Shown: positions 23,323 to 49,751, counted from the first letter of the stretch. The stretch is DNA of 64,000 bases from Thermoanaerobaculia bacterium (GCA_036398925.1 DASWOB010000050.1:79399-143398); one strand, 5' to 3'. A program made the numbers and translations. The notes: generated from the letters alone by a model not told the origin.

Positions 23323-23508
23323 ATGCACAACGAATTCACCGCGATCCTCGAGCGCGGCGAAGAGTGGTTCATCGCCTGCTGCCCCGAGATCCCGGGTGCC
23401 AACGGCCAAGGCCGCAGCTCGGACGAAGGCCGAGCGAACCTCGGCGAACCGATCGCGCTGATCCTCGAAGACCGGCGTGAAGATGCCCTCCGCGGGGTGC
23501 CTGCTTAG
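23323..23508 (+). CDS. HicB-like (UPF0150) antitoxin-type small protein with no adjacent HicA.
   Basis: MHNEFTAILERGEEWFIACCPEIPGANGQGRSSDEGRANLGEPIALILE fits the HicB N-domain pattern (...W.A.CPE.PG...QG.S.DEA..NL.E.I.L.LE). Confidence 0.55.
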   Translation: MHNEFTAILERGEEWFIACCPEIPGANGQGRSSDEGRANLGEPIALILEDRREDALRGVPA

Positions 23509-23774
23509 CCCGGCGACTCCGCCGGCCGCGGATTCCGCGCCGCGGCGATCTCCCGGACGATCTCGGCCGGATCGGCGCCGAGAACGTCCGAGAGTTCGAT
23601 CAACGTGCTGAGACTGGGGAGGTTCTCCCCACGCTCGACGAGTCTCAGATACTGCGGCGTCATGCCGGACCGCTGGGCGAGCTTGATGAGCGTCCAGCCG
23701 CGCTGTTGTCGCAACCTGGCGATGATTCGTCCGAGGCGGACTGCTTCCACGGTGATTCTGCGTGCTCTGACCAT
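23505..23774 (-). CDS. XRE-family helix-turn-helix transcriptional regulator (89 aa).
   Basis: LGRIIARLRQQRGWTLIKLAQRSGMTPQYLRLVERGENLPSLSTLIELSDVLG is a canonical XRE HTH. The ATG at 23774 was chosen. The longer listed ORF (to 23906) runs into the tandem repeat array. Confidence 0.55.
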   Translation of the reverse strand: MVRARRITVEAVRLGRIIARLRQQRGWTLIKLAQRSGMTPQYLRLVERGENLPSLSTLIELSDVLGADPAEIVREIAAARNPRPAESPG

Positions 23775-23846
23775 GATGCAGCGTGAGACGGCGATGAAGC
23801 CATTCCGGTTCTGCTCGCCAGTTCCCGCAATCCCCGATTCGAGCAG

Positions 23847-24207
23847 ACGGTCCGCGACCTCACGCGCGATATCCATGGATACCAGGCACACGGTCCGCGA
23901 CGTCACGCACGATATCCATGGATATCAAGCACACGGTCCGCGACCTCACGCACGATATCCATGGATATCACGCACACGGTCCGCGACCTCACGCACGATA
24001 TCCATGGATATCACGCACACGATCCGCGACCTCACGCACGATATCCATGGATATCACGCACGCGGTCCGCGACCTCACGCGTGATGGTATGGATAGCACC
24101 GGTGATGTCCATGGATATCACGCGAGCGCTCCGTGGACCCCGCGTTTGCATCCATGGATTCCAGCCGCAAAGTCCGCGAGCAGCGAAACGGAATCCATGG
24201 ATTCCGT
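23847..24207. repeat. Tandem array of 43-bp direct repeats (5 near-perfect and about 3-4 degenerate copies). Each carries the perfect 16-bp palindrome GATATCCATGGATATC.
   Basis: The palindrome starts at 23868, 23911, 23954, 23997 and 24040 (period 43). The spacer is acgcacacggtccgcgacctcacgcac. Degenerate copies run to about 24207. The array sits 73 bp upstream of the XRE gene start and 24 bp from the stop of the sugar dehydrogenase gene. Confidence 0.85.
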
Positions 24208-25386: not shown

Positions 25387-26010
25387 CTATCGAGCGCCGT
25401 TCGCCCGTCCGATCAGCGTCTCGAGCGGCCCCTCGATCCGCTCGGCCATGATGGCGTAGCCGGCGGCGTTCGGATGGATCTCGTCGCTCCTGAGCTTCGG
25501 ATCGGTGAGGATGCCGTCCATCAGATCGTCGATCAGCAGGCACTCCTCCTCGTCCGCGACCCGTTCGTACATCTTTGCGTAGCTCGGCCCGATGCTGGGG
25601 AACTCGAAGCCGAGCAGCACCACCATCGCCCCCGCCCCCTGGATCGTTTTCACGATGGCGCGCAGGTTGGCCTCCGTCGTGGCGATCGGCGCGCGCCGCA
25701 GAAAATCGTTGCCGCCCAAACCCACCACCACGATGCGCGGGTTGCGCGCCACGACGTCGTTGTCGATGCGCGCGAGTGCGGTCTCGGTGGTGTCGCCGCT
25801 GACGCCGGCGTTGATCACCTCCACGCCGAGCTTCGAGGTCAGCAGCGCCGGATACGCCTCCCCCGCCGACGCGCCATAGCCCTGCGTCAGCGAGTCGCCG
25901 AACGCGATGATTGCCGTGCCGCGGGAGTCGAGATTGCGGACGTGCGGCTTTGGCCAGAAGATGACACCGAGCGTAACGGCGACCACCACCGCCACGCGAA
26001 TGACGTACAT
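25387..26010 (-). CDS. SGNH/GDSL hydrolase (TesA-like arylesterase/lysophospholipase).
   Basis: The ATG at 26010. An N-terminal hydrophobic segment. [13 protein letters not shown] (GDS block), GGNDF and [10 protein letters not shown] blocks. Confidence 0.8.
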
Positions 26011-26018
26011 GCGTTTGA

Positions 26019-27998
26019 TCACGCCGTCAGTGTACGACCGCCGCCATGCTCGAGCCGCGCGATGACCTTGGTCAGGTCCTCGTGCCCGCCGACCAGCAGC
26101 ATCGTGTCGCCGGCCTGCAGCGGCTCCCCGACCGGCAGCGGCGTCAGCGCCTGGCCGTCGCGCAGCAGCGCCGCGACCCCGACCCCGTCGTCCGTCAACC
26201 GCATCTCCCCGAGCGTGCGCCCCTCCGCGAACGAATCGGGCAGCACCATGAACGTCTGCGACAGGCCGGCCGCGAAGATCGCGGAGAGCCTGCGCCCATC
26301 GGTGGCCCGTACGGCCGGATCGCGCAGCATCTTGTATCCCTCGTCGCGCAGCACCCGAATCTGATTGGCGACGATGTTCTGCGGCACGCACATGACCCGC
26401 AGCGTACGGGTGACGATTTCCAGCGACGTCTCGAACTCCTCCGGAATGACTTCATCGGCACCGATCTGCCGAAGCGGATCGACCTCCGCCACGTACCGCG
26501 TCCGCACGATCACATGCACGTCCGGATTGAGCGAGCGGCAGAAGCGGACGATCCGCCGCGTCCCATCGGCATCCGAGATGGCCACGATCACCAGCACCGC
26601 CTCGGCGATTCCGGCGAGCTGCATCGCGTGCGGATCGGCGGCATCCGCCATCAGCGCACGGCTGCCGGCCTTGCGCGCGGCGGCCACGCGATCCGGATCC
26701 TCCTCCAGCACCACGTGCTTCACGCCGGTCGACACCAGCACGCGCGCCACGTTCTGGCCGTTCAGCCCATAGCCGACGATCACGACGTGATGGCGCAGCG
26801 GCTCGCGCTCTTGCAGGTCTTCCTCCGGTGCCGCGTCATGCAGCCGCGCCGCGAGCCGGCTTCCCGCCGCGACCAGCAGCGGCGACGCCGCGAGCGTCAT
26901 CACCGCCACCGCTACGAAAGTCTGCTCCCCCGTGTTGCCCAGCAGCCCCACCTTCTTGCCGGCCTGCGCGAGCAGGAACGAAAACTCCCCGATCGGAGCG
27001 ATGGCGAACGCCGCCCGGATCGAGGTACGCCGCACCGCCGGCGACAGGCGAAAGGCCGGGTACGCGCACAGCACCTTCAGCAGGACGATCCCCGCCACCA
27101 TCCCCACGATCAGCAGCGGATGGGCGAGGAAGAACATCGGATCGAGCAGCATCCCGATCGAGGTGAAGAAGAGCGCCGAGAGAAAGTCGCGGAACGGCCG
27201 CAGCACGCCCTCGATCTCGTGGATGAACTCCGTCTCACCGACCACCAGCCCCGCCGCGAAGGCGCCGAGGGCGGGCGAGATGCCGAGCCGCTCCGCGATC
27301 GCGATGGTCACCACGATCAGGACCACCGACGCTGCGGTGAACGTCTCCCGCCCCATCCGGGCGATGCGCGCAAAGAGACGCGGCACGATGTATCGCGCCA
27401 CCACGATCAGCAGCACCACGCCGACGATGGCGATGGCCACCCGCTGCATCACGAGCCCGGGCGAGGCGGCCCCCGGCCCGCCGACGGCGAAGGCCGGCAC
27501 GAGCAGCATCAGCGGAATGACCGCGAGATCCTGAAAGAGCGACACGCCGAGAAACTTCCGCGCGAACGGCGCCCCGATCTCATCGCGCGCCGTCAGGATC
27601 GGCAGCACCACTGCCGTCGACCCGAGCGCCACCAGGATGCCGTAGAACAACCCGAGCCGCAGCGGACGCCCGATCATCACCGTGATCGCCGCCACGGCGA
27701 AGGTGGTCAACCCCATCTGCAACGGCCCGGATAAAAACGCGGTCCGTCCGAGCGCCCGCAGTCGCGCCAGCGGAACGTGCAACCCGATGAAGAAAAGGAT
27801 CAGCGCCACCCCGAGCTCCGCGATCGACTCGACCGCTGCCGTCTCATGGATCCACGCCAGCGCATGCGGCCCGATCAGGATGCCGGCCAGGATGTAGCTC
27901 AGCACCTCCGGCACGCCGAAACGCCGCCCGAGGTAGAGGAGCGGAAAAGCGGCGACCAGAATGATCGCCATATCGAAGAGCAACGGCTGGTCGTGCAT
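26019..27998 (-). CDS. CPA2-family monovalent cation:proton antiporter (KefB/KefC-like) with a C-terminal RCK/TrkA-N domain.
   Basis: An N-terminal Na_H_Exchanger-type 12-TM region. VVIVGYGLNGQNVARVL (Rossmann GxGxxG). A TrkA-C-like C-terminus. Confidence 0.85.
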   Translation of the reverse strand: MHDQPLLFDMAIILVAAFPLLYLGRRFGVPEVLSYILAGILIGPHALAWIHETAAVESIAELGVALILFFIGLHVPLARLRALGRTAFLSGPLQMGLTTFAVAAITVMIGRPLRLGLFYGILVALGSTAVVLPILTARDEIGAPFARKFLGVSLFQDLAVIPLMLLVPAFAVGGPGAASPGLVMQRVAIAIVGVVLLIVVARYIVPRLFARIARMGRETFTAASVVLIVVTIAIAERLGISPALGAFAAGLVVGETEFIHEIEGVLRPFRDFLSALFFTSIGMLLDPMFFLAHPLLIVGMVAGIVLLKVLCAYPAFRLSPAVRRTSIRAAFAIAPIGEFSFLLAQAGKKVGLLGNTGEQTFVAVAVMTLAASPLLVAAGSRLAARLHDAAPEEDLQEREPLRHHVVIVGYGLNGQNVARVLVSTGVKHVVLEEDPDRVAAARKAGSRALMADAADPHAMQLAGIAEAVLVIVAISDADGTRRIVRFCRSLNPDVHVIVRTRYVAEVDPLRQIGADEVIPEEFETSLEIVTRTLRVMCVPQNIVANQIRVLRDEGYKMLRDPAVRATDGRRLSAIFAAGLSQTFMVLPDSFAEGRTLGEMRLTDDGVGVAALLRDGQALTPLPVGEPLQAGDTMLLVGGHEDLTKVIARLEHGGGRTLTA

Positions 27999-28078
27999 CA
28001 GCGGAAAGTATGAAGGACTCCGCCGTCCGCCGATCAGTCGCCATCAGCCAACGGGGAGGGCCCACGGGCGGTGGAATA

Positions 28079-28325
28079 TGGACTGCGGTGGCAACGCCGC
28101 CGCTCTTCCACACGCGGCGGAGCCGCGCCAAACGGGGAGCGGGCGTCCCGCCGGCGAGCGCGTGGCATCCTGCCGCGCGCCGAAGAGCATGGTGCACGGG
28201 CGATCTTTGCCACCGGGCGAGACGCCCGGTGGTCGCGGGCGGGAGGCCCGGCGGGACGCCCGCTCCCCGGCGGGGCCGCTCCGCGGCCATGAGAGAGCGG
28301 CGGCGACGGCCGCCGCAGTCCAGAT
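28079..28325. mobile_element. MITE-like palindromic element, long copy A, with terminal inverted repeats of about 28 bp.
   Basis: The left end is ggactgcggtggcaacgccgccgctctt. The right end is its near-exact reverse complement, aagagcggcggcgacggccgccgcagtcc(agat). The interior is itself a nested inverted repeat. It lies between the kefB-like start and the stop of the HicB-like gene. Confidence 0.5.
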
Positions 28326-28351
28326 TCAAAGCGCGGGGAGTGTCGATCCCG

Positions 28352-28738
28352 CTACGGATCAACATCCCCCGACCGATGAACGCGCACGCGCCCAGGTTCC
28401 ACGATCAGATCGAATGCTCGGCCGACTCTTCGGCTAGTCGTTGCAGCGCCGCTGAGCGCACGCCGGCCACTGGTCACCGGAACCGTGGATGCAGCAGACG
28501 CGCGGTTCGTCGGGGTCGGACGGAAATTCGCTTCGCGCAACGCCTGGTCGAGAACACCGCGCTCCACGCAGCTCTCGAACCATAATTCGACAGCTTCCTG
28601 AAGGCAGCGGCGTGCGTCGCCATCACTGCGGCCTTGCGACACCACACCGACCATCGGACAGGTTGCAATCCATCGGCGCGTGGTGTCGGGTCGCACGAAC
28701 GCCTGAAGATGAACCTCGAGAGCGATAGATTCGGTCAT
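28352..28738 (-). CDS. HicB-like (UPF0150) protein with a low-complexity C-terminal extension and no HicA partner.
   Basis: The N-terminal 65 aa (MTESIALEVHLQAFVRPDTTRRWIATCPMVGVVSQGRSDGDARRCLQEAVELWFESCVERGVL) fits the HicB pattern. The C-terminal half is Ala/Ser/Arg-rich and runs up to the MITE copy. Confidence 0.45.
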   Translation of the reverse strand: MTESIALEVHLQAFVRPDTTRRWIATCPMVGVVSQGRSDGDARRCLQEAVELWFESCVERGVLDQALREANFRPTPTNRASAASTVPVTSGRRALSGAATTSRRVGRAFDLIVEPGRVRVHRSGDVDP

Positions 28739-28790
28739 ACGTGACTCAGATCGTACGGCGGTGACACCGCTGGATCAACGGGGAGCGGCT

Positions 28791-30281
28791 CTACTCCCCC
28801 ACCCGCAACCTCTCCAGCGGCAGCATGGCCGGTCCTTCGATCACTTCCCCATCGGTCGCGAAGCGGCTGCCGTGGCACGGGCAGTCCCAGCTCTTTTCGT
28901 AGCCGTTCCAGTGGACGATGCAGCCCATGTGCGTGCAGATGGGCGACAGCGCGGTCCATTCGCCGGAGGTGGAGCGGTGCACGGCCACTTTCTTGCCGTC
29001 GATCTCGACCAGGCAGCCTTCGCCCGCGGCGACGTCGGCGACTTTCTCGACATCAGCGCGGCGGAGGAGGAAGTCCTTGACGTACTGTTCGGCGACGTTG
29101 ACGTTCTCTTTGACGAACTCCTTCGCCGACTTGACCGGCGTGAAGCGGTTGGCCTTGTAGACGCTGGCCCATTCGTTCTCGCGGCCGAGGATGTCGTCGG
29201 TGATGATGTGCGCGGCGAGGGGGCCGTACAACAACCCGCTGGTGGAGAAGCCGGTGGCCATGTAGAGGTCGGGATGCGTTCCGGACTGGCCGATGAACGG
29301 CAGCTCGTCGGCCGGTTTGTAGTGCTGGCCCGACCAGCGGTAGTCGACGGTGGTCACGTTGAAATGCCGGCGCGCATACGTTTCGAGCTTGCCGTAGTAG
29401 TCCTCGGCATTGTCATGCTGTCCGACCTTGTGCTTCTCGCCGATGACGATCAGGTGGCCGTCGTAGGAGCGGATGGAGTGATGCATCGGCGTCTCGAGGG
29501 TCCAGAAGATCCCGTCCGGCAGCGCCCCCGAGGCCAGCTTCGCGGCCATGCCGTACTCGCGATACGGCCCCAGCTCCGTCTGCACGAGGTGAAAGCCCTT
29601 CGGCGTATGCGTGGCCAGGATGATCTTCTTTGCGCGGATGCCGCCGCCGGTGGTGGTGACGACCTGATCGCGGTCGTTGATGTCGACCACCTTCGTGTTC
29701 TCGAAGATCCGGCAGCGATCGGAGGCGATCGCCTTCGCCAGCAGCGCCACGTACGACAGCGGCTGGAACTGCGCCTGTCCGTCGATTCTCAGCGCCGGGC
29801 CGAGGGCCATCGGCAGGTCGACCGTCGACAGCGTGGCCGCGAGTCCTCCCGCCAGGGCGGCCGCATGCTCCTCTTCCATCGTCGAGATCTGCGACGCCTC
29901 GGCCGGGAAGATGAAGTGCGGCCGCCGGACGAATCCGCAGTCGATGCCGTACTGCGAAATGGTGCGCTCGATGAACGTGATCATCGCCTGGCGCGACTGG
30001 CAGACCACGCTCAGCACGTCGTCACCCCACTTTTTGCGGAGCTTCTGGAGCTGGTCGTCGACCGCCACGTGCAGGTTGCCGGTCGAATGGCCGGTCGTGC
30101 CGCGGCCGACGCGATGCGCCTCGATGACGGCCACGCTCTTGCCGGCCGCCACCAGCAGTTGCGCCGCGGTGATGCCGGTGATGCCGCCGCCGACGATGGC
30201 CACGTCGACGGAGAGATCCTCGTTCTGCGCCGGAAAGTGAACGTCTGCTGCAGTGCCTTCCCATAACGAAATACGGTTCAT
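28791..30281 (-). CDS. FAD-dependent oxidoreductase (DAO-like) fused to a C-terminal Rieske [2Fe-2S] domain.
   Basis: The ATG at 30281 is in frame. VAIVGGGITGITAAQLL (FAD GxGxxG). C-terminal CTHMGCIVHW...CPCHGSRF (Rieske CxH...CxxH). Confidence 0.85.
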   Translation of the reverse strand: MNRISLWEGTAADVHFPAQNEDLSVDVAIVGGGITGITAAQLLVAAGKSVAVIEAHRVGRGTTGHSTGNLHVAVDDQLQKLRKKWGDDVLSVVCQSRQAMITFIERTISQYGIDCGFVRRPHFIFPAEASQISTMEEEHAAALAGGLAATLSTVDLPMALGPALRIDGQAQFQPLSYVALLAKAIASDRCRIFENTKVVDINDRDQVVTTTGGGIRAKKIILATHTPKGFHLVQTELGPYREYGMAAKLASGALPDGIFWTLETPMHHSIRSYDGHLIVIGEKHKVGQHDNAEDYYGKLETYARRHFNVTTVDYRWSGQHYKPADELPFIGQSGTHPDLYMATGFSTSGLLYGPLAAHIITDDILGRENEWASVYKANRFTPVKSAKEFVKENVNVAEQYVKDFLLRRADVEKVADVAAGEGCLVEIDGKKVAVHRSTSGEWTALSPICTHMGCIVHWNGYEKSWDCPCHGSRFATDGEVIEGPAMLPLERLRVGE

Positions 30282-30389
30282 GCCGAGGCAGGAATTCACA
30301 AGTCGCGCCCGGCGCGCGGCTCGGCAGGGCTGTCCGATTTCGATGGACTTCCGGGCCGCGGTCTGCAATAGTTATCTCCACCTCGTCCA

Positions 30390-31046
30390 ATGTCTGACTT
30401 CCTTGCCGCCGCCCTGTCGTTCCCGACGGTCGTCTATACGGTCGCGCTCGTTTTCTTCCTGCTTTATGCCCTGGCTACGCTTCTCGGCGCGGCGGACATC
30501 GAGTGGCTCGACAACGTGCTGCACATCGACCACGCCAACGACACGATCTTCGAGGGAGCCCTCAGCTTCCTCGGCATCAGCGGCGTTCCGGTGATGATCT
30601 TCGGCGGCGTCGCCTCGGTGTTCGCCTGGATCGCTTCGATCGCTGCGATGAAGTTCGTCCCCGATTCGATGCTCTTCGCGACCCTGGCCGGCCTCGGCGC
30701 GGGTGTGGCCGGCCTGGCCCTCGGCTCGCTGGCCGTCCGGCCGCTGCACGGCATCTTCAACACCGCCACCGGCCCGCAGCGCTCCGGCATCGTCGGCAAG
30801 GTCTGCACGGTCCGCTCGCTGCGCGTCGACGAGACCAGCGGCACGGCGGAAGTGGACGGCGGCGCCGGCTTCATCGCCGAGGTGCGCTGCATGCGTGAGA
30901 ACGCCATGACCCGCGGCAGCAAAGCGATCGTCTACGACTACGACCCCAAAGAAGGTATCTACTTCATCGGCCCGCTCGATCGATCGGTGGCCGAGGTTGA
31001 TGCAGCACTCATCACCGCATCTCGCAGCCCGCAGGCCGAGAGCTAG
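30390..31046 (+). CDS. NfeD-like membrane protein (YqiJ-type) with a C-terminal OB-fold.
   Basis: Four TM helices, then GKVCTVRSLRVDETSGTAEVDGGAGFIAEVRCMRENAMTRGSKAIVYDYD (NfeD beta-barrel). Immediately upstream of the flotillin gene. Confidence 0.75.
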   Translation: MSDFLAAALSFPTVVYTVALVFFLLYALATLLGAADIEWLDNVLHIDHANDTIFEGALSFLGISGVPVMIFGGVASVFAWIASIAAMKFVPDSMLFATLAGLGAGVAGLALGSLAVRPLHGIFNTATGPQRSGIVGKVCTVRSLRVDETSGTAEVDGGAGFIAEVRCMRENAMTRGSKAIVYDYDPKEGIYFIGPLDRSVAEVDAALITASRSPQAES

Positions 31047-31055
31047 GAGACATCC

Positions 31056-32945
31056 ATGGATCTGTTCATCGCTATCGTCGTCGGTGCCATTTTTCTGCTC
31101 ATCGCCACCTTCGTGGTCGGCGTGATGATCGCGAAGTTCTACCGCAAGGTGGAGCAGGGGAAGGCGCTCATCGTCAACAAGATGAAGGCCGAGCCCGAGG
31201 TCACGTTCACCGGCGCGACCGTGCTGCCGATCATCCACAAGGCGGAAGTGATGGACATCTCGGTCAAGACCATCGAGATCGACCGCCGCGCGAAGGACGG
31301 CCTGATCTGCCGCGACAACATCCGCGCCGACATCAAGGTCACGTTCTTCGTCCGCGTGAACAAGACCGTCGATGACGTGATCAAGGTCGCGCAGTCGATC
31401 GGCTGCGTCCGCGCCTCCGATCCCGGCACGCTCGAAGCGCTGTTCAGCGCCAAGTTCTCCGAGGGGCTCAAGACCGTCGGCAAGCAGCTCGACTTCGTCG
31501 ACCTCTACACCAAGCGCCACGAGTTCCGCGACGCGATCATCAACCTGATCGGCCGCGACCTGAACGGCTACGTCCTCGAGGACGCCGCCATCGACTACCT
31601 CGAGCAGACGCCGATCGTGAACCTCGATCCGATGAACATCCTCGACGCGCAGGGCATCCGGAAGATCACGGAGCTGACCTCGACCGAGCACGTGCGCACG
31701 AACGAGTTCCAGAACACCGAGAAGAAGCTCACCAAGAAGCAGGACGTCGAGGCGCAGGAAGCGATCCTCGAGCTGGAGCGCCAGCAGGCCGATGCCGAGG
31801 CCAAGCAGAAGCGCGAGATCGAATCGGTCCGCGCCCGCGAGGCCGCCGAGCTGCACAAGATCCAGGCGGAGGAGCGCCGCCGCGCCGAGACCGCCCGCAT
31901 CGCCACCGACGAGGACCTGGCGATCGCCGAGCAGAACAAGCAGCGCCAGATCGAGGTCGCGCAGAAGAACCGCGAGCGCGTGGTCGGCATCGAGACCGAG
32001 CGCGTCGAGAAGGACCGCATGCTCGAGCAGGTCACGCGCGAGCGCGCCGTGGCCCTCTCGCAGATCGACAAAGAGAAGGCCCTCGAGGTCGAGCGGAAGA
32101 ACATCCAGGAAGTCATCCGCGAGCGCGTGGTCGTGGAGCGCAGCGTGGTCGAGGAGCAGGAGCGCATCAAGACCGTGCAGATGCTCGAAGACGCGAAGCG
32201 CAACCGCGAGGCGGTGATCATCGCCGCCGAGGCCGAGGCGCAGGAGAAGCTCGTCAAAGACATCAAGGCCGCCGAAGCCGCCGAGCAGGCGTCGCACCAC
32301 ATCGCCAGGCAGCGCGTCACGCTCGCGGAATCGGAAGTGGAAGCCGCCGACCGCGAAGCGCGCGCGAAGATCCGCCTCGCCGAAGGTCTGCAGGCCGAAA
32401 GCGCCGCGGAAGGGCTCGCCGCCGCGAGGGTCAAGGAAGCGGATGCCATCGCCAGCGAGAAGCATGGCCTGGCCGACATGCGCGTGAAAGAGGCCGAAGC
32501 GAACGCGATCGCGAAGCTCGGCGCGGCCGAGGCGTCGGTCATCGAGCAGAAACTCTTCGCCGAAGCGGCCGGTATCACCAAGAAGGCCGAAGCGATGAAG
32601 CAGCTCGACACCGCGTCGCGCGAGCACGAGGAGTTCCGCCTGCGCATCGAGACCGAGCGGATGCTCGGCACCGCGCACATCGCAGCGCGCCAGAAGGTCG
32701 AGGAAGCGAAAGCGCAGATCCTCGGCGTGGCGCTGCAGAACGCCAAGATCGACATCGTCGGCGGCGACGGCCAGTTCCTCGACCGCATCGTGAACTCGGT
32801 CGGAATGGGCAAAGCCGTCGACCACTTCCTCGGCGAAAGCGAGACCGCGCAGGCAGTGCTGGCGAAGCTGGGAGTGGCCAAACCGGCCAGCGAGATCGTG
32901 CCTCCGACGGTTTCGGCGAAAGTCCCGGTCGTGCGCGCCGACTAG
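31056..32945 (+). CDS. Flotillin-family SPFH/band-7 protein (YqiK/FloT-like).
   Basis: An AGGAGA RBS. An N-terminal TM helix, an SPFH domain and a long Glu/Ala/Arg-rich coiled coil (EAQEAILELERQQADAEAKQKREIE...). Confidence 0.9.
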   Translation: MDLFIAIVVGAIFLLIATFVVGVMIAKFYRKVEQGKALIVNKMKAEPEVTFTGATVLPIIHKAEVMDISVKTIEIDRRAKDGLICRDNIRADIKVTFFVRVNKTVDDVIKVAQSIGCVRASDPGTLEALFSAKFSEGLKTVGKQLDFVDLYTKRHEFRDAIINLIGRDLNGYVLEDAAIDYLEQTPIVNLDPMNILDAQGIRKITELTSTEHVRTNEFQNTEKKLTKKQDVEAQEAILELERQQADAEAKQKREIESVRAREAAELHKIQAEERRRAETARIATDEDLAIAEQNKQRQIEVAQKNRERVVGIETERVEKDRMLEQVTRERAVALSQIDKEKALEVERKNIQEVIRERVVVERSVVEEQERIKTVQMLEDAKRNREAVIIAAEAEAQEKLVKDIKAAEAAEQASHHIARQRVTLAESEVEAADREARAKIRLAEGLQAESAAEGLAAARVKEADAIASEKHGLADMRVKEAEANAIAKLGAAEASVIEQKLFAEAAGITKKAEAMKQLDTASREHEEFRLRIETERMLGTAHIAARQKVEEAKAQILGVALQNAKIDIVGGDGQFLDRIVNSVGMGKAVDHFLGESETAQAVLAKLGVAKPASEIVPPTVSAKVPVVRAD

Positions 32946-32952
32946 TCCATCC

Positions 32953-33062
32953 CCAGTGTCATCCTGAGCCCGCGCAGACGGGCGAAGGACCCCCTTCGAC
33001 ATGCGCGACGCCACGTGCATCCGCAAGCGCCGGGGGGTCCTTCGCTTCGCTCAGGATGACAC
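32953..33062. repeat. Nested hairpin of about 105 bp between the flotillin gene and the giant ATPase gene.
   Basis: Outer stem gtgtcatcctgagc / gctcaggatgacac. Inner stem gaaggaccccc / gggggtccttc. Confidence 0.55.
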
Positions 33063-33101
33063 GTGGGAGCGGGGGCTCCCCGCAACGCGAGGAACCGATT
33101 C

Positions 33102-36100
33102 ATGACCATCGAACGCGGCACCTACGAAGTCATCCGCGACCGCCTTTCGGCGCAGGGGAAAACCCTCGCTGAAAAGGCGGCGCGCCTCAACGCACGCCGG
33201 ATCGAGCTGTTCGGCGGGGCGGAGATGGCCCTCCTCGGCAGCGATCGCATTCGCACCGAGAACAACTGCGTGCCGCGCGACATCGCGGAAGCGGGCAGCC
33301 TCCTGCTGTTCGGCTACAACGTCTTCATCGGCCTCAAGACCGAGACGCAGGTGTCGGATGTCTTCTCGCTGCACCGCGTCGACAACTTCGCGGCGGTGCC
33401 GGCCGATGCGCCGGAGAACTTCCTCCGCGATCCGAAGTTCGCTCACGACTTCCGCGAGCTCTATCAGTACTACCGCAACTCGCGGCTGCTGCAACTGCGG
33501 CGCGTCGAGTCGAAGCTGCTGGCGGTCTTCCAGACCGGCGAGAAGCTGACCGACCTGCGCGTCTTCCGCTGGCAGGTGGCGGTCGACGGCAGCGTCACCT
33601 ACATCGACAACCGCGGCGAGCGCGATCACGTCTACCCGCCGCGCCACGACTTCGAGTGGATTGCCACCTCGCGCGAGCACCACGTGAGCGGCAAGCATCC
33701 GCACTGCTCGATCGAGGACAGCCTCTTCGTCGAGACCATCGGCGGCGACGTCACGTTCAAGATCGAGGACAACACCTCGACGGGCCGCGGCATCTTCAGC
33801 GAGCCGGTCGACGATCCCGATCAGTCGCTCGACGACGCGCAGATTCACTACGCGGTCATCGGCACGCTGATCCTGGTGAAGCTCCTCCCCTATCGCGAGA
33901 AGAGCTGGCGCTATTACGTCTTCAACAAACGGACGAAGAGCGTGCGGCGCATCGACGCCATCGGCGCCGCCTGCATCCAGCTTCCCGAGGATCACGGCAT
34001 CATCTTCCCGGGCGGCTACTACCTCCGCACCGGCGACGCCAGGATCTTCGAGGAGCACGATCCGAACGGGATGGAGTTCCTGCGCGCGGTCCGCGCGCCG
34101 AACGGCGAGGACGTGCTCTACGCGTTCCACCGCCGCGATGAAGGGCGGACGCTGCTTTTCTCGTACAACCTCATTCGCAAAGAGGTCGTCAACCCGCTCA
34201 GCTGCCACGGCTACTCGCTGTTTGCCGACGGCAAGATGATCATCTTCTCCGCGACCAGCAACGAGCCGACCCGCGTCCATCCGATGCAGATCTGGCAGAC
34301 GCCGTTCGTCAGCGACGACCACCTGGCGAAGACGCCGCAGCCAAATACGTTTCTCGGCAAGGTCGGCAACCGCGATCTCGTGCGTGGTCTCTCCAGCGCG
34401 CTCTCGATCTGCCGCCTCGTCGACGAACAGACCCCGTCGCGCGCGACCTACGAAGACATGGTCGCGGCCACCGCGCGGGTCATCGACGCGTATCACTGGA
34501 TCGGTCACGCCGAAGCCGAAGACCTCCTCTCCACGATCAAAGAAGTCCGCGCCACCGCGGAGCTGATCATCGATGAGTTCGAGAAGGTGGAGGCGCTGCG
34601 CGCGCAGGCCTCGAAGGCGGTCGGCGACGTCGAGCAGTCGCTCAACGAAAAGCGTCCCGAGCCGGCATCCATCGACGACTACGTCGCGCAGCTCGGCGAG
34701 CTCCGTTCGAAGCAGGGGCACATCATTTCGCTGCGCGAGCTGCGTTACGTCGATCGCGCGAAGCTCGACGCGCTCGAAGCGGGCGTCGTGGCGCGCTTCG
34801 GCGAACTGTCGCAGGCCACGGTGCAGTTCCTCCTCGACGAGAAGGCGCTGGCGCCGTTCGCCGAAAAGACCACCTACATCGAAACGCGCATCGCCAACGT
34901 CCAGAAGACCACCGACGCCGAGGCGCTCGTGCGCGAAGTCGAAGGGGTGGTCGGGTCGCTGAATCTCCTGACCGAGATCATCGGCTCGCTGCAGATCGAA
35001 GACCCGTCGGTGCGCATCCGGATCCTCGAGCGGATCTCGCAGCTGATGTCGGGCCTCAACCGCGTCCGCGCGCTCGTCGCGCAGCGGCGCAAGGAGCTGC
35101 TCGGCAAGGAACGCGTCGCCGAGTTCGCGGTGCAGTTCTCCCTCTTCACCCAGACCGTCTCCAGTTCCGTCTCCGGCACCGACACGCCGGAGCGCTGCGA
35201 TACCGAGCTGTCGAAGCTGATGCTGCAGCTCGAAGAGCTGGAGACCCGCTTCAGCGAGTTCGACGACTTTGTGGCGCAGCTCGCGGCCAAACGCGAAGAG
35301 GTGTACGACGCCCTCACCGCGCGCAAGCAGTCGCTGCTCGAACAGCGGCAGCGCCGGGCGGAGCAGCTGCAGCAGGCCGCGACGCGCATTCTCCAGGGGA
35401 TCACCCGCCGTGCCGGCACGCTCGGCAACGTCGACGCGCTGAACGCGTTCTTTGCCTCCGACCCGATGGTGGCCAAGCTCCGCTCGACGTCCGAGAAACT
35501 GCGCGAGCTGGGCGACATCGTGCGCGCCGACGAGATCGACGGCAAGCTCAAGACCGCGCGCGACGAAGCCGCACGCTCGCTGCGCGACCGGAACGAGCTG
35601 TTCGAGGAAGGGTCGAACGTGGTCCGCTTCGGCGAGCACCGCTTCAGCGTCAACACGCAGCCGGTCGAGCTGACCATCGTTCCGCGCGAAGAGCGCCCCC
35701 ACCTCCACATCACCGGCACCGGCTTCTTCGAGCCGATCGAAGAAGAGCTGGCCTATCCGAATCAGGAGCTGGTCTCCGAGACCGAAGAGGTCTACCGCGC
35801 CGAGTACCTCGCCTACGTGGCCCGCAACGGCGACGTGCGCGAAGCGATGGCGGCGCGCTACGACGAAGGCTACGAGCGCGGCGTGCACGATCACGACGCG
35901 CAGCTCATCGCCGAGAAACTGCGCGGCATGATGTCGACCGCCGGCCTCCTGCGCTACACGCCGAACGCGCGCGCCGCCGCCACGCTCTTCTGGGCCTTCT
36001 TCCCGGATGAATCGCTCAAAGCGCAGTGGTCCGCGCACGCGAAGGCCCTTCTGGACTGCGGTGGCAACGCCACCGCTCTCGCCCAGGAACTGCAGCAAGC

Positions 36101-38180
36101 CATCGAAACCTGGCTCCCCGTCGACTGCGGCAACATCCGCAACGCCGGCGCCTACCTCTGCGAAGAGATCTCGCAGCAGCCGATCCGCTTCGTGCTCAGC
36201 GCCGAAGCCGCGGACTTGTTGAACGCGGCGATCCCCAACCTCCGCGACCTCGACTGGCAGCGCAAGCTCGCCGTCGTGCGCACGTCCGTCCCGAACCTCG
36301 AAGCGGCGGCAGCGATCGTCACCAACGGCACGCTCTCGCGCGAGCGCTCCTCCGCGATCATCCAGACGAAGATCACCGGCCTGCTCGGCCAGCACCCGCG
36401 CATTGCCGGCGGCACGATGGAGCTGCGCCTCGACGAGTTCCTGGCGCGCCTCGGCACGTTCGAAGCGGAGCGCGTCCCCGCCTTCCGCGCCTACCAGCAG
36501 AAACGCCACGCCATCCTCGAGCGCGAGCGGAAGCGCCTGCGCCTCAGCGAGCTGCAGCCGAAGGTGATGTCCGCCTTCGTCCGCAACAAACTGATTTCCG
36601 AGGTCTACCTCCCGCTCATCGGCGCCAATTTCGCGAAGCAGATGGGCGTGGCCGGCGAGAAAAAGCGCACCGACCTGATGGGCCTTCTGCTGCTCGTCTC
36701 CCCCCCCGGCTACGGCAAGACCACGCTGCTCGAATACATCGCGGTGCGCCTCGGCCTGGTCTTCGTGAAGATCAACGGTCCGGCGCTCGGCCACTCGGTG
36801 AAATCGCTCGACCCGAACGAAGCGCCGAACGCCACCGCGCGGCAGGAGATCCTCAAGCTCAACCTCGCCCTGGAGATGGGGAACAACGTGCTGCTGATGA
36901 TCGACGACATCCAGCACACGCACCCGGAGCTCCTCCAGAAGTTCATCTCGCTCTGCGACGCGCAGCGCAAGATCGAAGGCTGCTGGCGCGGCGAAACGCG
37001 CACGTACGACCTGCGCGGCAAGCGCTTCGCCGTCTGCATGGCCGGCAACCCGTACACCGAGTCGGGCGAGAAGTTCGAGATCCCCGACATGCTCGCCAAC
37101 CGCGCCGACGTCTACAACCTCGGCGAAGTGCTGGCCGGCCGCGACGAGCTGTTCGACCTCAGCTACATCGAGAACGCCCTCACCTCCAACAGCATCACCG
37201 CGCCTCTGCTCACGCGCGATCCGAACGACGTGCAGAAGCTGGTGCGCATGGCGCGCGGCGAACAGGTGCAGGCCGACCAGCTCTCGCACGACTACTCCTC
37301 GGTCGAGCTGAACGAGCTGCTCGGCGTGCTGCGCAAGCTCAGCGTCGTGCAGCAGCTCCTCGCCCGCGTGAACCGCCAGTACGTCCTCTCGGCCGCGCAA
37401 CAGAACGCCTACCGCACCGAGCCGTCGTTCAAGCTGCAGGGCAGCTACCGCAACATGAACAAGCTCGCGGAGAAAGTCCTCCCCGCGATGAACGACGACG
37501 AGCTGCAGCGCCTCATCGACGACCACTACCTCGGCGAAGCGCAGACCCTCACCGCCGGCGCCGAAGAAAACCTCCTCAAGCTCGCCGAGCTCCGCGGCCG
37601 GATGACCGACGCCCAGCGCACCCGCTGGCAAGAGATCAAGCGCGGCTTCACCCGCGTGCAACGCCTCGGCGGCACCGAAGCCGACCCCGCCGCCCGCGTC
37701 ATGGCCGAACTGAGCGTCGTCAGCGACCGCATCGGCGAAGTGGCCCGCGCCATTGCCGGAGCGATCTCCGCCGCGGAAGCGCCGGCCGTCGCCCCCGTCG
37801 CAGCGCCCGCACCCACCCCGGTCGTCATCTCCGCCCCCGCCGTGCCGTCGCTCGACCTCACCCCCTACCTCGCCAAACTCGACGAAACCCTGCACGCCCT
37901 GCGCGAGCTCCACACCGCAAGACTCCCGATCGCCGCCGCATCCGCCGTCGTCGCCGCGCCCGCGCAACCACCGGCGTCCTCCCGTGAGGCCTACCTCATC
38001 CAGGACACCCTGATCCCCCTCCTCCGCTTCATGGCCCACCGCTTCAAGAGCTACCGCTCCGTCGCCGACCCGAAAGTGAAGCAGGCCATCGCCCGCCTCG
38101 AGTCGGTCAAGGACCTCGACCAGCTCGTGAGCACCCTGGAGAACATCAACGTCTCAGCGCTGGCGACGTTGACGGAGTAG
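33102..38180 (+). CDS. Giant (1,692 aa) protein with a long coiled-coil region and a C-proximal AAA+ (MoxR/AAA_5-like) P-loop ATPase domain. Function unknown.
   Basis: A GAGGA RBS then the ATG at 33102. Walker A LLLVSPPGYGKTTLLEYIA, Walker B NNVLLMIDDIQ and sensor-1-like FAVCMAGNPYTE. Extensive predicted coiled coil at aa 450-1000. It contains a 29-bp in-frame fragment of the MITE terminal repeat at 36051-36083. Confidence 0.8.
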   Translation: MTIERGTYEVIRDRLSAQGKTLAEKAARLNARRIELFGGAEMALLGSDRIRTENNCVPRDIAEAGSLLLFGYNVFIGLKTETQVSDVFSLHRVDNFAAVPADAPENFLRDPKFAHDFRELYQYYRNSRLLQLRRVESKLLAVFQTGEKLTDLRVFRWQVAVDGSVTYIDNRGERDHVYPPRHDFEWIATSREHHVSGKHPHCSIEDSLFVETIGGDVTFKIEDNTSTGRGIFSEPVDDPDQSLDDAQIHYAVIGTLILVKLLPYREKSWRYYVFNKRTKSVRRIDAIGAACIQLPEDHGIIFPGGYYLRTGDARIFEEHDPNGMEFLRAVRAPNGEDVLYAFHRRDEGRTLLFSYNLIRKEVVNPLSCHGYSLFADGKMIIFSATSNEPTRVHPMQIWQTPFVSDDHLAKTPQPNTFLGKVGNRDLVRGLSSALSICRLVDEQTPSRATYEDMVAATARVIDAYHWIGHAEAEDLLSTIKEVRATAELIIDEFEKVEALRAQASKAVGDVEQSLNEKRPEPASIDDYVAQLGELRSKQGHIISLRELRYVDRAKLDALEAGVVARFGELSQATVQFLLDEKALAPFAEKTTYIETRIANVQKTTDAEALVREVEGVVGSLNLLTEIIGSLQIEDPSVRIRILERISQLMSGLNRVRALVAQRRKELLGKERVAEFAVQFSLFTQTVSSSVSGTDTPERCDTELSKLMLQLEELETRFSEFDDFVAQLAAKREEVYDALTARKQSLLEQRQRRAEQLQQAATRILQGITRRAGTLGNVDALNAFFASDPMVAKLRSTSEKLRELGDIVRADEIDGKLKTARDEAARSLRDRNELFEEGSNVVRFGEHRFSVNTQPVELTIVPREERPHLHITGTGFFEPIEEELAYPNQELVSETEEVYRAEYLAYVARNGDVREAMAARYDEGYERGVHDHDAQLIAEKLRGMMSTAGLLRYTPNARAAATLFWAFFPDESLKAQWSAHAKALLDCGGNATALAQELQQAIETWLPVDCGNIRNAGAYLCEEISQQPIRFVLSAEAADLLNAAIPNLRDLDWQRKLAVVRTSVPNLEAAAAIVTNGTLSRERSSAIIQTKITGLLGQHPRIAGGTMELRLDEFLARLGTFEAERVPAFRAYQQKRHAILERERKRLRLSELQPKVMSAFVRNKLISEVYLPLIGANFAKQMGVAGEKKRTDLMGLLLLVSPPGYGKTTLLEYIAVRLGLVFVKINGPALGHSVKSLDPNEAPNATARQEILKLNLALEMGNNVLLMIDDIQHTHPELLQKFISLCDAQRKIEGCWRGETRTYDLRGKRFAVCMAGNPYTESGEKFEIPDMLANRADVYNLGEVLAGRDELFDLSYIENALTSNSITAPLLTRDPNDVQKLVRMARGEQVQADQLSHDYSSVELNELLGVLRKLSVVQQLLARVNRQYVLSAAQQNAYRTEPSFKLQGSYRNMNKLAEKVLPAMNDDELQRLIDDHYLGEAQTLTAGAEENLLKLAELRGRMTDAQRTRWQEIKRGFTRVQRLGGTEADPAARVMAELSVVSDRIGEVARAIAGAISAAEAPAVAPVAAPAPTPVVISAPAVPSLDLTPYLAKLDETLHALRELHTARLPIAAASAVVAAPAQPPASSREAYLIQDTLIPLLRFMAHRFKSYRSVADPKVKQAIARLESVKDLDQLVSTLENINVSALATLTE
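36051..36083. repeat. Partial copy (one terminal repeat) of the MITE-like family, embedded in frame in the giant gene.
   Basis: ctggactgcggtggcaacgccaccgctct matches 28/29 to the terminal repeat of the other copies. It encodes ...LLDCGGNATAL.... Confidence 0.5.
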
Positions 38181-38420
38181 CGGTGAGCCTTTGAGCTGTT
38201 GAGCTGTTGAGCTGTTGAGCGAGAAGTGTGAATGGAACCAGAGTCAACAACTCACTTCCTCGCTCAATAGCTCAATAGCTCAACAGCTAAAAAGCTCGAA
38301 CCCGGAGCTGTTCAGCTGTTCAGGCGAGGAAGTGAATTGTTGATTCTGGTTTTATCCACACTTCATCGCTCAACAGCTCAACACCTGAACAGCTGAACAG
38401 CTGAATAGCTGAATAGCTCA
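38181..38420. repeat. Two adjacent imperfect palindromes built from tandem 8-mers (GAGCTGTT / CAGCTGTT / TCAATAGC).
   Basis: gagctgttgagctgttgagctgttgagcgagaagtg...cacttcctcgctcaatagctcaatagctcaacagct, and cagctgttcagctgttcaggcgaggaagtg...cacttcatcgctcaacagctcaacacctgaacagctgaacagctg. The region is AT-richer than the surrounding sequence. Confidence 0.7.
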
Positions 38421-38451
38421 ACAGCTCGAAGGCGAAGCCCCCACGACCCGG

Positions 38452-38868
38452 TCAAGGCGTGAGCGCGCGCTTGCGCCGCGCCTCGGTGGCCGCGCGCGAG
38501 GGGACGGCCTCGCCGTAGGAGCGTTCGTAGGCGGCGCGCATGTTTTCGAGGTGCTCGACCAGCTCCGGGTGCTCGCCGGTCTGCACCAGTTCCTCGGCCT
38601 TGTAGTAGATGTCGAGGGCCATCTCGAAGGCCCGCTCCTGCGCTGCTTCGACGGTGGTGCGCAGCTCGTCCGCGAGTGACTGCGAGGCCTCCAGCACCGT
38701 CTCCAGCTCGAAATCCGACAGCGCTTCGAGGTCGGCGTTGCGCAGGTCGCGCAGCATGGCGCGCGCTTCGTCCGCGTTTCCCGGCACGACCGGAGGGCCG
38801 GCGGGCAGGCGGTCGCGCACCTCGGTGAGGCGACCCAGAATCGTTTCTGCACTCATCTTCTTGGGCAT
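38452..38868 (-). CDS. Hypothetical alpha-helical protein (138 aa).
   Basis: The ATG at 38868 is in frame, preceded by a GGAGAC RBS. GC-biased third codon positions. Acidic helical sequence with no recognisable family. Confidence 0.5.
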   Translation of the reverse strand: MPKKMSAETILGRLTEVRDRLPAGPPVVPGNADEARAMLRDLRNADLEALSDFELETVLEASQSLADELRTTVEAAQERAFEMALDIYYKAEELVQTGEHPELVEHLENMRAAYERSYGEAVPSRAATEARRKRALTP

Positions 38869-39825: not shown

Positions 39826-40122
39826 ATGGAGATCGCGCACGACGGGAAGCAAAATTTGCACGACGGGAAGAGCCGCGCTCACGCCGGGAAGAGCGTTTTC
39901 CACGCGGGGAAGAAAAAGTTGCTCGACGGGAAGGGCGTGGCTCACGACGGGAAGAGCGGCGCTCTCGATCGGAAGGACTTTTTTCACGGCGGCAAGAGCG
40001 GCGGCCACGATCGGAAGAGCGTTTCTCACGAGCGCATCAGAATTTTCCTCGAGCGCGAGAGCCGCCGTCACGACCGGAGCAGCGTCCTTCATCGAATTGT
40101 GACGCTCGCTCATCAGCGTTGA
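39826..40122 (+). CDS. Possible small protein made of HDGKSxx heptad repeats, encoded by a 21-bp tandem DNA array. The coding status is uncertain.
   Basis: About 12 imperfect 21-bp repeats (cacgacgggaagagcg.....) between 39835 and 40095. The plus frame has about 77% GC3, versus about 64% for the antisense ALPVVxx frame. The stop overlaps the next ORF. Confidence 0.3.
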   Translation: MEIAHDGKQNLHDGKSRAHAGKSVFHAGKKKLLDGKGVAHDGKSGALDRKDFFHGGKSGGHDRKSVSHERIRIFLERESRRHDRSSVLHRIVTLAHQR

Positions 40123-45379: not shown

Positions 45380-46188
45380 AGCCGCGAGAACTGCTCTTTC
45401 AACCCGAGCTCGCGGTCGATCTCGAAGACGCCGAACAGCTCGTGAATCGAGTGGTAGCCGGTGTGGTACAGCGCGCGGATGAGTGAGCGCCGGTCGGGCC
45501 AGAACGAGCGGTCGTTCGACACCGCGCGCCACTGCTCGTCGAGGTGCGTCTCCTGCGGCTCGGCGAACCAGCGGCCGTGGTAAGTGCGGCCGTCGTGCTC
45601 GAACGTCGTCTCCTCCGAGAGGTGCTGCGCGTGCGTGCCGTAGCGCATCGCCACCGGATCGGGCGCCACGTGCGTGTCGAGGAAAAACAGCCCGTCATCG
45701 GCGAGCAGGGTGGCCATCTGCTCGAGGTGCGCGAACGGCTGGTCGATGTGGTAGAGCAGTCCGCAGCAGAGGATCGCGTCGAATTTGCCGTCGCGCTCCG
45801 GCGAGAGCTCCTTCACGTCGCGCTGCTGAAAGCGGAGGTTGGGAAGGGCAAAGTACTCGCGGATCAGCTCGGCCTTCCGGAAGTTCTGCTCGCGCCCTTC
45901 CACGCCGACGACCTCCCACCCCTCACGAGCCATCTCCAGGGAGAGGCCGCCCTCGTTGCTGCCGAGGTCGAGGATGCGGATGCGCGGCTTCTGCACGAAG
46001 CGGCGGATGGAGGCTTTGATGGCGCGGGTGCGCTCGTCGTCGCCGATCAGGATCACCCCGGGGATGGTCGATTCCGACGTGGTGAGGGGGATGTTGTGGC
46101 CGGCCCAGCTCTCCGCGCGAATCTTCGCGAGCAGCGCCTGGTCGGGCTGCGCGAGGCGGCGGCGGATGGCTTCGTCGAAGGGCGTCAT
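45352..46188 (-). CDS. Class I SAM-dependent methyltransferase.
   Basis: The ATG at 46188 is in frame. ILDLGSNEGGLSLEMA (motif I) and DAILCCGLLYH (motif II). The listed 437-aa ORF carries a spurious N-terminal extension. Confidence 0.75.
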   Translation of the reverse strand: MTPFDEAIRRRLAQPDQALLAKIRAESWAGHNIPLTTSESTIPGVILIGDDERTRAIKASIRRFVQKPRIRILDLGSNEGGLSLEMAREGWEVVGVEGREQNFRKAELIREYFALPNLRFQQRDVKELSPERDGKFDAILCCGLLYHIDQPFAHLEQMATLLADDGLFFLDTHVAPDPVAMRYGTHAQHLSEETTFEHDGRTYHGRWFAEPQETHLDEQWRAVSNDRSFWPDRRSLIRALYHTGYHSIHELFGVFEIDRELGLKEQFSRLYLACARSW

Positions 46189-46248
46189 GAGTGCGGCGGT
46201 TCCTCGGGCGCGGGATCGTAGCGCAAATTCCGATAGCATCGCGCGCGC

Positions 46249-47370: not shown

Positions 47371-47482
47371 AGGCTCCCCGCATCCCCGAGGAGCGCAGCG
47401 ACGTGAGGATCAACCAAGGCGCGGCGCTGCTGACGGCCGTCGGCGTCCGCGGATGAGAGCCCACACCACACCCGGGCAGCAT

Positions 47483-47583
47483 CTGGACTGCGGCAGCAAC
47501 GCTGCCGCTCTTTCCACGCCGCGGAGCGGCGCGCGGCTCCGCCGCGTATGTCATAGCGGCGGCGCTGCCACCGCAGTCCAGAT
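47483..47583. mobile_element. MITE-like element, short copy B (about 101 bp).
   Basis: atctggactgcggcagcaacgctgccgctct ... atagcggcggcgctgccaccgcagtccagat. The core is palindromic (cgccgcggagcggcgcgcggctccgccgcg). Confidence 0.55.
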
Positions 47584-47602
47584 TGTTCGCGCGTGAAATG
47601 GG

Positions 47603-47687
47603 CCGTGTGGTGTGGGCGTCCCGCCCACCCCGTCTCCAAGGCCCGTTCCCTGAAGACGGGGGGTGGGCTGGAAGCCCACACCACACG
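47603..47687. repeat. Second hairpin element next to MITE copy B, with flanking gcccacaccacac direct repeats.
   Basis: gtgtggtgtgggcgtcccgcccaccccgtc ... gacggggggtgggctggaagcccacaccacac. gcccacaccacac also occurs at 47457-47469. Confidence 0.5.
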
Positions 47688-47704
47688 CGCTATCATCGAT
47701 ACTC

Positions 47705-47893: not shown

Positions 47894-47975
47894 TTGCGAC
47901 GAGTGACAACGGCAAGATCGACGTCCCCCGCGCCTTGATTGATCCTCACGTCGCTGCGCTCCTCAGGATGGGCCC

Positions 47976-49130: not shown

Positions 49131-49143
49131 GAGGTTTTTGCAG

Positions 49144-49749: not shown

Positions 49750-49751
49750 TG

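Follow-up and report, generated by a model that had tools for sequence, protein, structure and literature searches.

The 64-kb stretch of DNA analysed here, which we call the window, carries one palindromic sequence at several separate sites, both between genes and inside a gene, and this raises the question of what kind of element it is and how it could have dispersed. An earlier note on this DNA took the copies for a MITE-like family with terminal inverted repeats (TIRs) of 28 bp. The surroundings are those of an ordinary chromosome, with pilMNOPQ, biotin carboxylase and a carrier protein, RelA/SpoT, succinate dehydrogenase and S-adenosylhomocysteine hydrolase. The window corresponds to metagenome contig Ga0334964_000026 (JGI 3300034146), and the best relatives of its proteins are found in Vicinamibacterales and Thermoanaerobaculia, which makes Acidobacteriota the probable source. 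When the same strain was assembled independently (Logan SRR10955009), short contigs began at 47531, in the centre of the element that we call copy B, and ended at 57020, in the right arm of copy C, and contig breaks of this kind are expected of a multi-copy sequence in a de Bruijn assembly.

Seven hairpin arms in the window

Searching the 64-kb window for the pattern CTGGACTGCGGTGGCAACGCCGCCGCTCT with at most 3 mismatches returned six arms, which are those of Table 1 except the right arm of copy A, and 100 dinucleotide shuffles gave 0 matches (chance expectation, 0). The seventh arm, at the right end of copy A, carries a 1-nt indel and is visible only by eye or in an alignment. Together, the seven arms (matching CTGGACTGCGGYRGCARCGCYRCCGCT) make up three composite palindromes and one solo arm, so the earlier description of a dispersed family with inverted ends, present as three copies and one in-frame fragment, holds.

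Table 1. Coordinates of the repeats and of the genes next to them in the window.
Feature	Position	Strand	Remarks
Copy A	28078-28325	.	Composite palindrome: two inverted arms and a central hairpin, with a second palindrome at its apex
Left arm of A	28078-28106	+	aTGGACT-GCGGTGGC-AAC-GCCGCCGC-TCT; ssDNA hairpin of -8.8 kcal/mol
Nested palindrome	28130-28275	.	About 146 nt, of another family, in the loop of A's central hairpin; ends GGGGAGCGGGCGTCCCGCCGG / CCGGCGGGACGCCCGCTCCCC
Right arm of A	28296-28325	-	CTGGACT-GCGGCGGC-CGTC-GCCGCCGC-TCT; 4-nt loop, one extra base
Giant ATPase gene	33063-38180		DUF3686/AAA, 1705 aa
Solo arm	36051-36079	+	In-frame arm of the giant ATPase gene (DUF3686/AAA); translated as LDCGGNATAL, part of a variable linker
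Copy B	47481-47583	.	Composite palindrome in the 335-nt gap from the aminotransferase stop (47370) to the DUF433 gene
Left arm of B	47483-47511	+	Stem variant CA/TG
Right arm of B	47553-47581	-	Stem variant TG/CG, one T.G pair
Small DUF433 gene	47705-47893		Beside copy B
Response-regulator gene	56340-56942	+	Stop at 56940-56942, just before copy C
Copy C	56943-57048	.	Composite palindrome; fills the gap between the stops of convergent genes exactly
Left arm of C	56947-56975	+	
Right arm of C	57016-57044	-	
5'-nucleotidase gene	57046-58353	-	Stop codon at 57046-57048, inside copy C

We found that each of the seven arms folds on itself as single-stranded DNA, with an 8-bp stem and a loop of 3-4 nt. 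The unit that they represent is about 30 nt long and consists of an unpaired, conserved 5' foot, (T/C)TGGA(C/G)T, which can also be given as TGGAC(T/C); an 8-bp G+C stem, GCGGYRGC/GCYRCCGC; the 3-4-nt loop; and a short 3' tail, which reads CT(C/A)T in the window as against TT(T) in most other genomes. Written as a pattern, the unit is TGGA[CG]T-GCGGNNGC-N3-4-GCNNCCGC. A composite of about 100 nt is formed by two inverted units round a lineage-specific and itself palindromic spacer, which in the window is the central hairpin GCGGAGCC-GCGC-GGCTCCGC. Copies B and C, at about 101-106 nt, are near-perfect palindromes with 82% column identity in either orientation, and for RNA from either strand of either copy the predicted folding energy lies between -72 and -84 kcal/mol, with z from -7.3 to -9.5. 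Copy A (247 nt) reaches -200 kcal/mol (z -11).

Copy A had been regarded as a long version of the element, but the alignment shows an element of the B/C type with a palindrome of 146 nt inserted at the apex of its central hairpin. The nested element, folded over 148 nt as single-stranded DNA, gave -68.8 kcal/mol (z -7.0), and its core, GGGCGTCCCGCC, occurs again at 47614 in a hairpin beside copy B. Copy A is flanked by the stop of an ORF at 28355-28738 on the minus strand and by the start (27998) of a KefB-like gene, whose start codon lies 80 nt away with copy A upstream. The Pfam domains of the latter (Na_H_Exchanger, TrkA_N and TrkA_C) bear out the kefB-like assignment that had been proposed for it, whereas the HicB-like character attributed to the former has only sub-threshold matches, to UPF0150 (E=0.024) and HicB_lk_antitox (E=0.076).

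Other palindromic sequences crowd round copy B, which is bracketed by GCCCACACCACAC (47459) and its complement (47606). A 99-nt hairpin (GTGTGGTGTGGGC...GCCCACACCACAC) at 47598-47696 adjoins it and folds as single-stranded DNA at -38.5 kcal/mol (z -6.7); since a third GCCCACACCACAC lies upstream (47459-47472), copy B has complementary segments from another palindromic family on its two sides. On a larger scale, a 40-nt inverted repeat with 95% complementarity (47385-47424 and 47928-47967) encloses a 503-bp block that contains copy B, the second long hairpin and the small DUF433 gene, and this block looks like a cassette or possibly an invertible or mobile segment.

Copy C as a probable insertion

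Copy C had been described as fitting exactly between the stops of two convergent genes; it does adjoin both, with the correction that the palindrome takes in the stop codon of the 5'-nucleotidase gene. When metagenomes were scanned for this 5'-nucleotidase, 56 loci were recovered, with orthologues at 47-69% identity. In six syntenic relatives (L098, L100, L103, L128, L130 and L142), the convergent stops overlap or lie at most 17 nt apart, compared to 106 nt in the window, and the 0-17 nt at this site in relatives with the same gene order indicate that copy C was inserted. The closest relative, L098 (69% identical), has a doublet of the family on the other side of the 5'-nucleotidase gene, where the window has none. 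At the spot of copy C, four further loci (L101, L102, L105 and L112) carry quite different hairpins or inverted 8-mer arrays, which argues for opportunistic insertion rather than a required signal. Arms are rare among these relatives, with two occurrences, one of them a doublet, in 210 kb versus 7 arms in the 64 kb of the window.

The earlier note had suggested that target-site duplications be sought at each copy. We found no direct repeats flanking A, B or C, nor any flanking the doublets of other genomes. An AT dinucleotide lies on either side of both B and C; AT being self-complementary, a 2-bp duplication cannot be told apart here from the palindrome itself.

The window also holds repeats of other kinds. 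Short tandem repeats form inverted, self-folding arrays at 6354-6563, 38185-38441, 50643-50742, 53508-53657 and about 49750-49790, with units such as (GCTGAACA/GCTCAACA)n, (GAGGGCC)n, (TCATCGC/TCATCTC)n and (GTTCCTCGG)n, and the (GAGTCTCC)n/(GGAGACTA)n array that L101 has at the copy C site is similar to these intergenic arrays. A 43-nt tandem repeat is present six times at 23800-24128, next to, or reaching into, the beginning of an HTH_3 gene (23508-23906, minus strand), and a 21-nt repeat (CACGACGGGAAG...) nine times at 39838-40089, inside an ORF at 39826-40119.

The hairpin unit in other genomes

To place the unit more widely, we scanned one genome per species for 185,579 species, leaving two stem positions per side and the first two loop bases free. 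The arm pattern was found in at least 91 stretches of other genomes, and the repeat is thus not confined to the window; such confinement was one of the outcomes that the earlier note had named as counter-evidence. Among the 102 matches listed, the free stem positions formed Watson-Crick pairs in 73, compared to 6% by chance, and the dominant compensatory variants were CA/TG (34), TG/CA (22) and CG/CG (14). TT directly follows the hairpin in 78 of these 102 listed matches and T precedes the foot in most. About 10 of the listed matches, from Actinomycetota and a few others, are chance matches in coding sequence without the extra features. The real members among those listed come from Acidobacteriota (gp7, Blastocatellia, Thermoanaerobaculia and Acidoferrales), Planctomycetota, Verrucomicrobiota, Sumerlaeota and a genome named 'delta proteobacterium', making this a unit of soil and sediment bacteria from at least four phyla.

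While the arm is kept across phyla, the interior differs by lineage, the doublet spacer measuring about 20 nt in gp7 and 54 nt in a genome of Planctomycetales, as against 85-95 nt in Sumerlaeia. In the 46 doublets listed, pairing within an arm averaged 15.2 of 16 positions versus 13.8 of 16 for identity between arms. In the Planctomycetales genome, most of the copies listed join a TG/CA stem and AAC loop to a CG/CG stem whose loop is usually CTT. The two arms of a doublet therefore keep their own stems but often as different variants, which argues for selection on the individual hairpin and for two unit types, as in E. coli BIMEs. The functional unit is a hairpin module, not a terminal inverted repeat.

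Arms also occur alone: 56 of the 164 relaxed-pattern matches listed, a set that includes chance matches, lack an inverted partner within 220 nt. At the other extreme, some genomes hold up to 3 doublets per 8 kb (L026 and L053), and L037 has tandem triplets. Genomes rich in arms include QHVT01 (Acidobacteria gp7), CAZTVU01 (Planctomycetales) and JAOAGV01 (Sumerlaeia). A search for arm pairs flanking a gene-sized segment, in the style of an IS or REPtron, found only neighbouring independent doublets. A scan of viral contigs gave four stretches, of which only one (L157) resembles a real doublet, and plasmid BLAST gave one irrelevant match, so the family is not obviously phage- or plasmid-borne. 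A different motif, GGGAGATCCCTCGCTTCGCTCGGGAT, lies upstream of the 5'-nucleotidase gene (58360-58400), where a Logan contig starts inside it; related sequences (...GGAGATCCTTCGC...CTCAGGATGAC) occur in the Acidobacteria gp7 loci L028 and L043, and this motif is probably another multi-genome repeat family.

In-frame copies inside protein genes

The solo arm of the window lies within the giant ATPase gene. Its in-frame position and its translation had been noted correctly, but the fragment had been extended to 36083, four nucleotides too far. In distant orthologues of the ATPase, the residues at this place are unrelated and variable and the stretch is as long or longer, so the arm replaces a linker and adds no length. 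The closest orthologue (L095, 74% identity) is on a contig that begins exactly at the arm site with TTGGAAAGCGGCAGCTCTGCTGCCGCACTCCAAAA, encoding LESGSSAAALQ, and this arm aligns codon for codon with that of the window. A Vicinamibacterales relative (L096; GCA_035947375.1, DASZKD010000876.1, 1895-2206) has the same unit at the same site, which brings to two the relatives with an in-frame arm there. Protein-level conservation of the segment in element-free orthologues, which the earlier note had raised as a counter-argument, is thus not what we observed: distant orthologues are unrelated at this place and the closest ones again hold an arm.

L096 carries a second unit 230 bp upstream, and the two units are inverted repeats that match perfectly over 33 bp. 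In the assembly, the intervening 230 bp of coding sequence are inverted and the reading frame is cut off, which reflects either a real intragenic inversion or a mis-join or mis-assembly through the repeat. Compared to most homologues, the window ATPase is without some 30-40 residues between EYLAYV and ARNGD (35800-35840), just where the second in-gene arm of L096 lies. The units of L095 and L096 are 'double-foot' (TTGGA-xx-stem-loop-stem-xx-TCCAA), with the 5' foot kept in the window and the 3' foot in the relatives. We had considered a flip in the orientation of the in-gene arm between the window (5' foot) and these relatives (3' foot), and dropped it for the simpler double-foot reading.

In a Thermoanaerobaculia genome (L034; DATFHJ010000194.1, 1141-1198), a complete 58-nt doublet lies in frame in a gene for an AlkA-like DNA glycosylase, giving the protein sequence ...LARWV-LDCGGIAAAFESGGDAAALQ-KIPGIGPWTANY, just before the PGIGPWTANY helix-hairpin-helix motif. 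All in-gene copies share one reading frame, which yields small and hydrophobic residues. With an in-frame arm that recurs and a full doublet in the AlkA-like gene, the analogy with the in-frame palindromic elements (RPEs) of Rickettsia drawn in the earlier note is apt; RPEs are restricted to Rickettsia and measure 100-150 bp. A full-text literature search with the arm sequence and the encoded peptides found only unrelated primers and acronyms. Peptides such as ECGG...PL and ...AAALQ probably occur among the hypothetical proteins of these phyla.

Search for a mobilising enzyme

We looked for an enzyme that might move the repeats. No transposase or recombinase domain was found by Pfam among the roughly 50 called genes of the window, which at that level agrees with the earlier observation that the window has no transposase. 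Pfam assigned 84 sampled ORFs flanking arms to housekeeping genes only, with no recurrent transposase. For 8,628 ORF fragments from 971 kb, phmmer gave nothing at E<=10 with E. coli TnpA-REP (verified against PDB 4ER8) or with IS608 TnpA, and no HUH...YxxNP motif was found. These negatives carry little weight, since 971 kb is a tiny sample of each genome in which a single-copy gene would rarely fall, and single-sequence phmmer searches are insensitive.

Alternative explanations

A classic MITE would be an internally deleted IS of the DDE type, whose parent transposase recognises the 28-bp TIRs in double-stranded DNA and makes duplications. Elements of 100-250 bp with inverted ends and no coding capacity, dispersed as intergenic copies and, for B and C, with AT on both sides as a possible 2-bp duplication, have the outward form of such a family. 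Their arms, however, are self-complementary hairpins with compensatory changes for which a TIR has no need, the covarying positions are often not the same in both arms of an element, many arms stand alone, and it is the arm that is kept across phyla and not the interior. No fixed-length direct repeats surround A, B, C or the doublets of other genomes, and neither the window nor the 84 arm-flanking genes include an IS or transposase, let alone an autonomous IS with matching TIRs. What had been read as a 28-bp TIR is in each case a covarying hairpin, and we consider the MITE explanation distinctly unlikely. A structured small-RNA gene or a cis-regulatory RNA motif would account for the very stable predicted folds and the stem covariation, yet several points speak against it: as DNA the elements are almost perfect palindromes and fold equally well from either strand, copies occur within coding sequence, and no promoter-like sites lie at the elements. 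Rfam had 0 matches at the gathering threshold in the window and 18 arm-rich loci, and at E<=10 the region 47380-47980 gave only miRNA-like or other hairpin-type matches far below gathering scores. We give this explanation hardly any credence.

The repeats might instead be a structural signal that is selected by the host, has no mobility of its own and arises or spreads by recombination or gene conversion; it could act as a bidirectional transcription terminator, stabilise mRNA at the 3' end or be bound by a conserved host protein. The position of C exactly between convergent genes and of A and B downstream of genes would suit such a role, as would the TT after the hairpin in 78 of the 102 matches listed from other genomes. 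The conservation of sequence across phyla likewise suggests recognition by something conserved. Canonical terminator-like sites (a hairpin and a T run) are not enriched in the window, with 9 found versus 6.9 in shuffled sequence at 26000-38500 and 3 versus 7.0 at 46000-58500, so other structures might do the job. Gene ends in these two regions are often followed by long palindromic repeats. On the other hand, the window arms are followed by CTCTTTCC, CTCTGAAC or CTATCAAC, without a T run, and were not called as intrinsic terminators; in other genomes, there is only TT(T) after the hairpin. Solo arms showed no bias relative to the upstream gene (10 on the same strand and 9 opposite), a crude and uninformative comparison of low power, made with a home-made GC3 caller that yields spurious ORFs over G+C-rich repeats. 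In-frame intragenic copies and nested insertions are hard to square with a host signal, as are sites that are occupied in some relatives and empty in others and the unrelated hairpin and tandem-repeat elements found at the same intergenic spot. Overall, we regard a host-selected signal as unlikely, if by no means far-fetched.

A probable REP/BIME-like family and its possible enzyme

The explanation that we prefer, with a probability of roughly 0.6, is that the copies are non-autonomous palindromic hairpin repeats like REP/BIME (REPIN) elements, with a non-canonical foot. They are dispersed, their sites are polymorphic among relatives, the hairpin is under constraint, and target-site duplications are absent. 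Composites admit other palindromic elements in their loops, and variable protein linkers can hold a single unit or a doublet in frame. By analogy with REP/RAYT and IS200/IS605, copies would be made or moved on single-stranded DNA by a nuclease that acts in trans, recognises the hairpin and foot, is of the HUH Y1 type or functionally similar, and is encoded elsewhere in the genome. Thus, while the repeat family is well supported, its mechanism is drawn by analogy only. In transcripts, the 100-nt hairpin between convergent genes could also form a 3' stem-loop that blocks transcription or stabilises the mRNA. The foot TGGA[C/G]T and the unit sequence match none of the published REP types, and the host range is unusually wide. 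REPs are not usually as near-identical across phyla as this 30-nt unit is, and the likeness might reflect a constraint of a different kind.

One more speculative idea, which we think has only a small chance of being right as a whole, takes the 30-nt module as the recognition site of a conserved protein common to distant soil phyla that generates linker variation and intragenic inversions. Instead of being a RAYT, such a protein might belong to a new, hairpin-specific class of nucleases or recombinases. Its action would hold the copies near-identical from phylum to phylum, even at one intragenic site whose flanks share about 70% amino acid identity, and inverted pairs of intragenic units would flip coding segments, as with the 230-bp piece of the DUF3686 ATPase in L096. 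If this were true, the family would be more than selfish DNA.

REP-type repeats and domesticated transposases have been worked out almost wholly in Proteobacteria. The present hairpin unit, whose foot is a different one, is common to Acidobacteriota, Planctomycetota, Verrucomicrobiota and Sumerlaeota, occurs in frame in repair-related genes and is abundant enough to break metagenome assemblies. If the enzyme is found, hairpin-directed transposition of single-stranded DNA would be known from major lineages of uncultured soil bacteria as well, one source of the spurious 'hypothetical proteins' and broken contigs in their genomes would be accounted for, and there would be a handle on how palindromes become protein linkers.

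Comparison with known systems

MITEs carry TIRs that match those of a parent IS and are flanked by target-site duplications. The repeats of the window resemble bacterial MITEs (RUP, NEMIS/Correia, ERIC and Nezha) in size, inverted ends, lack of coding capacity, stable RNA hairpins and position next to genes, but show neither of these two features. With RPEs they have in common that palindromic repeats lie both between genes and in frame within functional protein genes. However, RPEs are CGTC-tagged elements of 100-150 bp found in Rickettsia only (PMC3733652), while the in-frame pieces here are a 29-nt arm (window) or a 58-nt doublet (L034), and the in-frame piece takes the place of a variable linker about as long as itself, without lengthening the protein. 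No CGTC tag was present at either palindrome end in the arms of the window or of other genomes.

Quentin et al., in one of two surveys of REP-like repeats that take in these phyla, described class-3 Y1 proteins of Planctomycetes and Acidobacteria with CnGA-footed repeats, as well as 'double-foot' REPs (PMC6006769); the REP-like repeats associated with class-3 TnpA-Y1 number about 600 in Solibacter usitatus (PMC6006769). The present family is similar in occurring in the same phyla, in its atypical hairpins and non-GTAG foot, in behaving like a REPtron rather than an IS, and possibly in a high copy number, with 7 arms in the 64 kb read of the source genome. The units themselves are unrelated in sequence and shape to those of class 3 (such as CAGAGCCGCGACCGTTAGGGAGCG, whose foot is CnGA and whose stem is weak and bulged): a CnGA foot with a GCCGCGACCGT.AGGGAGCG core was not found, and the Table S1 sequences of that study (PMC6006769) are unrelated to the arm.

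The closest likeness is to the REP/BIME/REPIN repeats that, with the RAYT (TnpA-REP) proteins, are known from E. coli, Pseudomonas and Stenotrophomonas (PMC3116915, PMC3733652, PMC6006769). In the other survey, Di Nocera et al. distinguished GTAG- and CGTC-tagged REPs and TIR families linked to tyrosine transposases, and reported that intragenic REPs are enriched in replication and repair genes (PMC3733652). The foot here is TGGA[C/G]T and not GT[AG]G, GTAG and GTGG being absent beside the stem on both strands; a RAYT or REPtron was not found in the window, the 84 ORFs or the 971-kb sample; and REPs are usually specific to a species or genus, whereas one unit sequence is common to at least four phyla. 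Otherwise, the unit is a self-folding imperfect palindrome of 20-40 nt with a conserved, unpaired foot, as in REPs, and it is found singly, in inverted pairs that yield a long hairpin, and in clusters, with three doublets and one singlet in the window. Two unit variants alternate within doublets, recalling the Y and Z REP types of E. coli BIMEs (PMC6006769, and established knowledge). The copies lie in extragenic sites between unidirectional or convergent genes, have no target-site duplication or coding capacity, and include 'double-foot' units and occasional in-frame intragenic copies, notably in repair genes. These hallmarks are those of REP/BIME-type elements and not of IS-derived MITEs, and, the foot and the sharing across phyla excepted, the architecture matches REP/BIME/REPIN repeats in nearly every respect.
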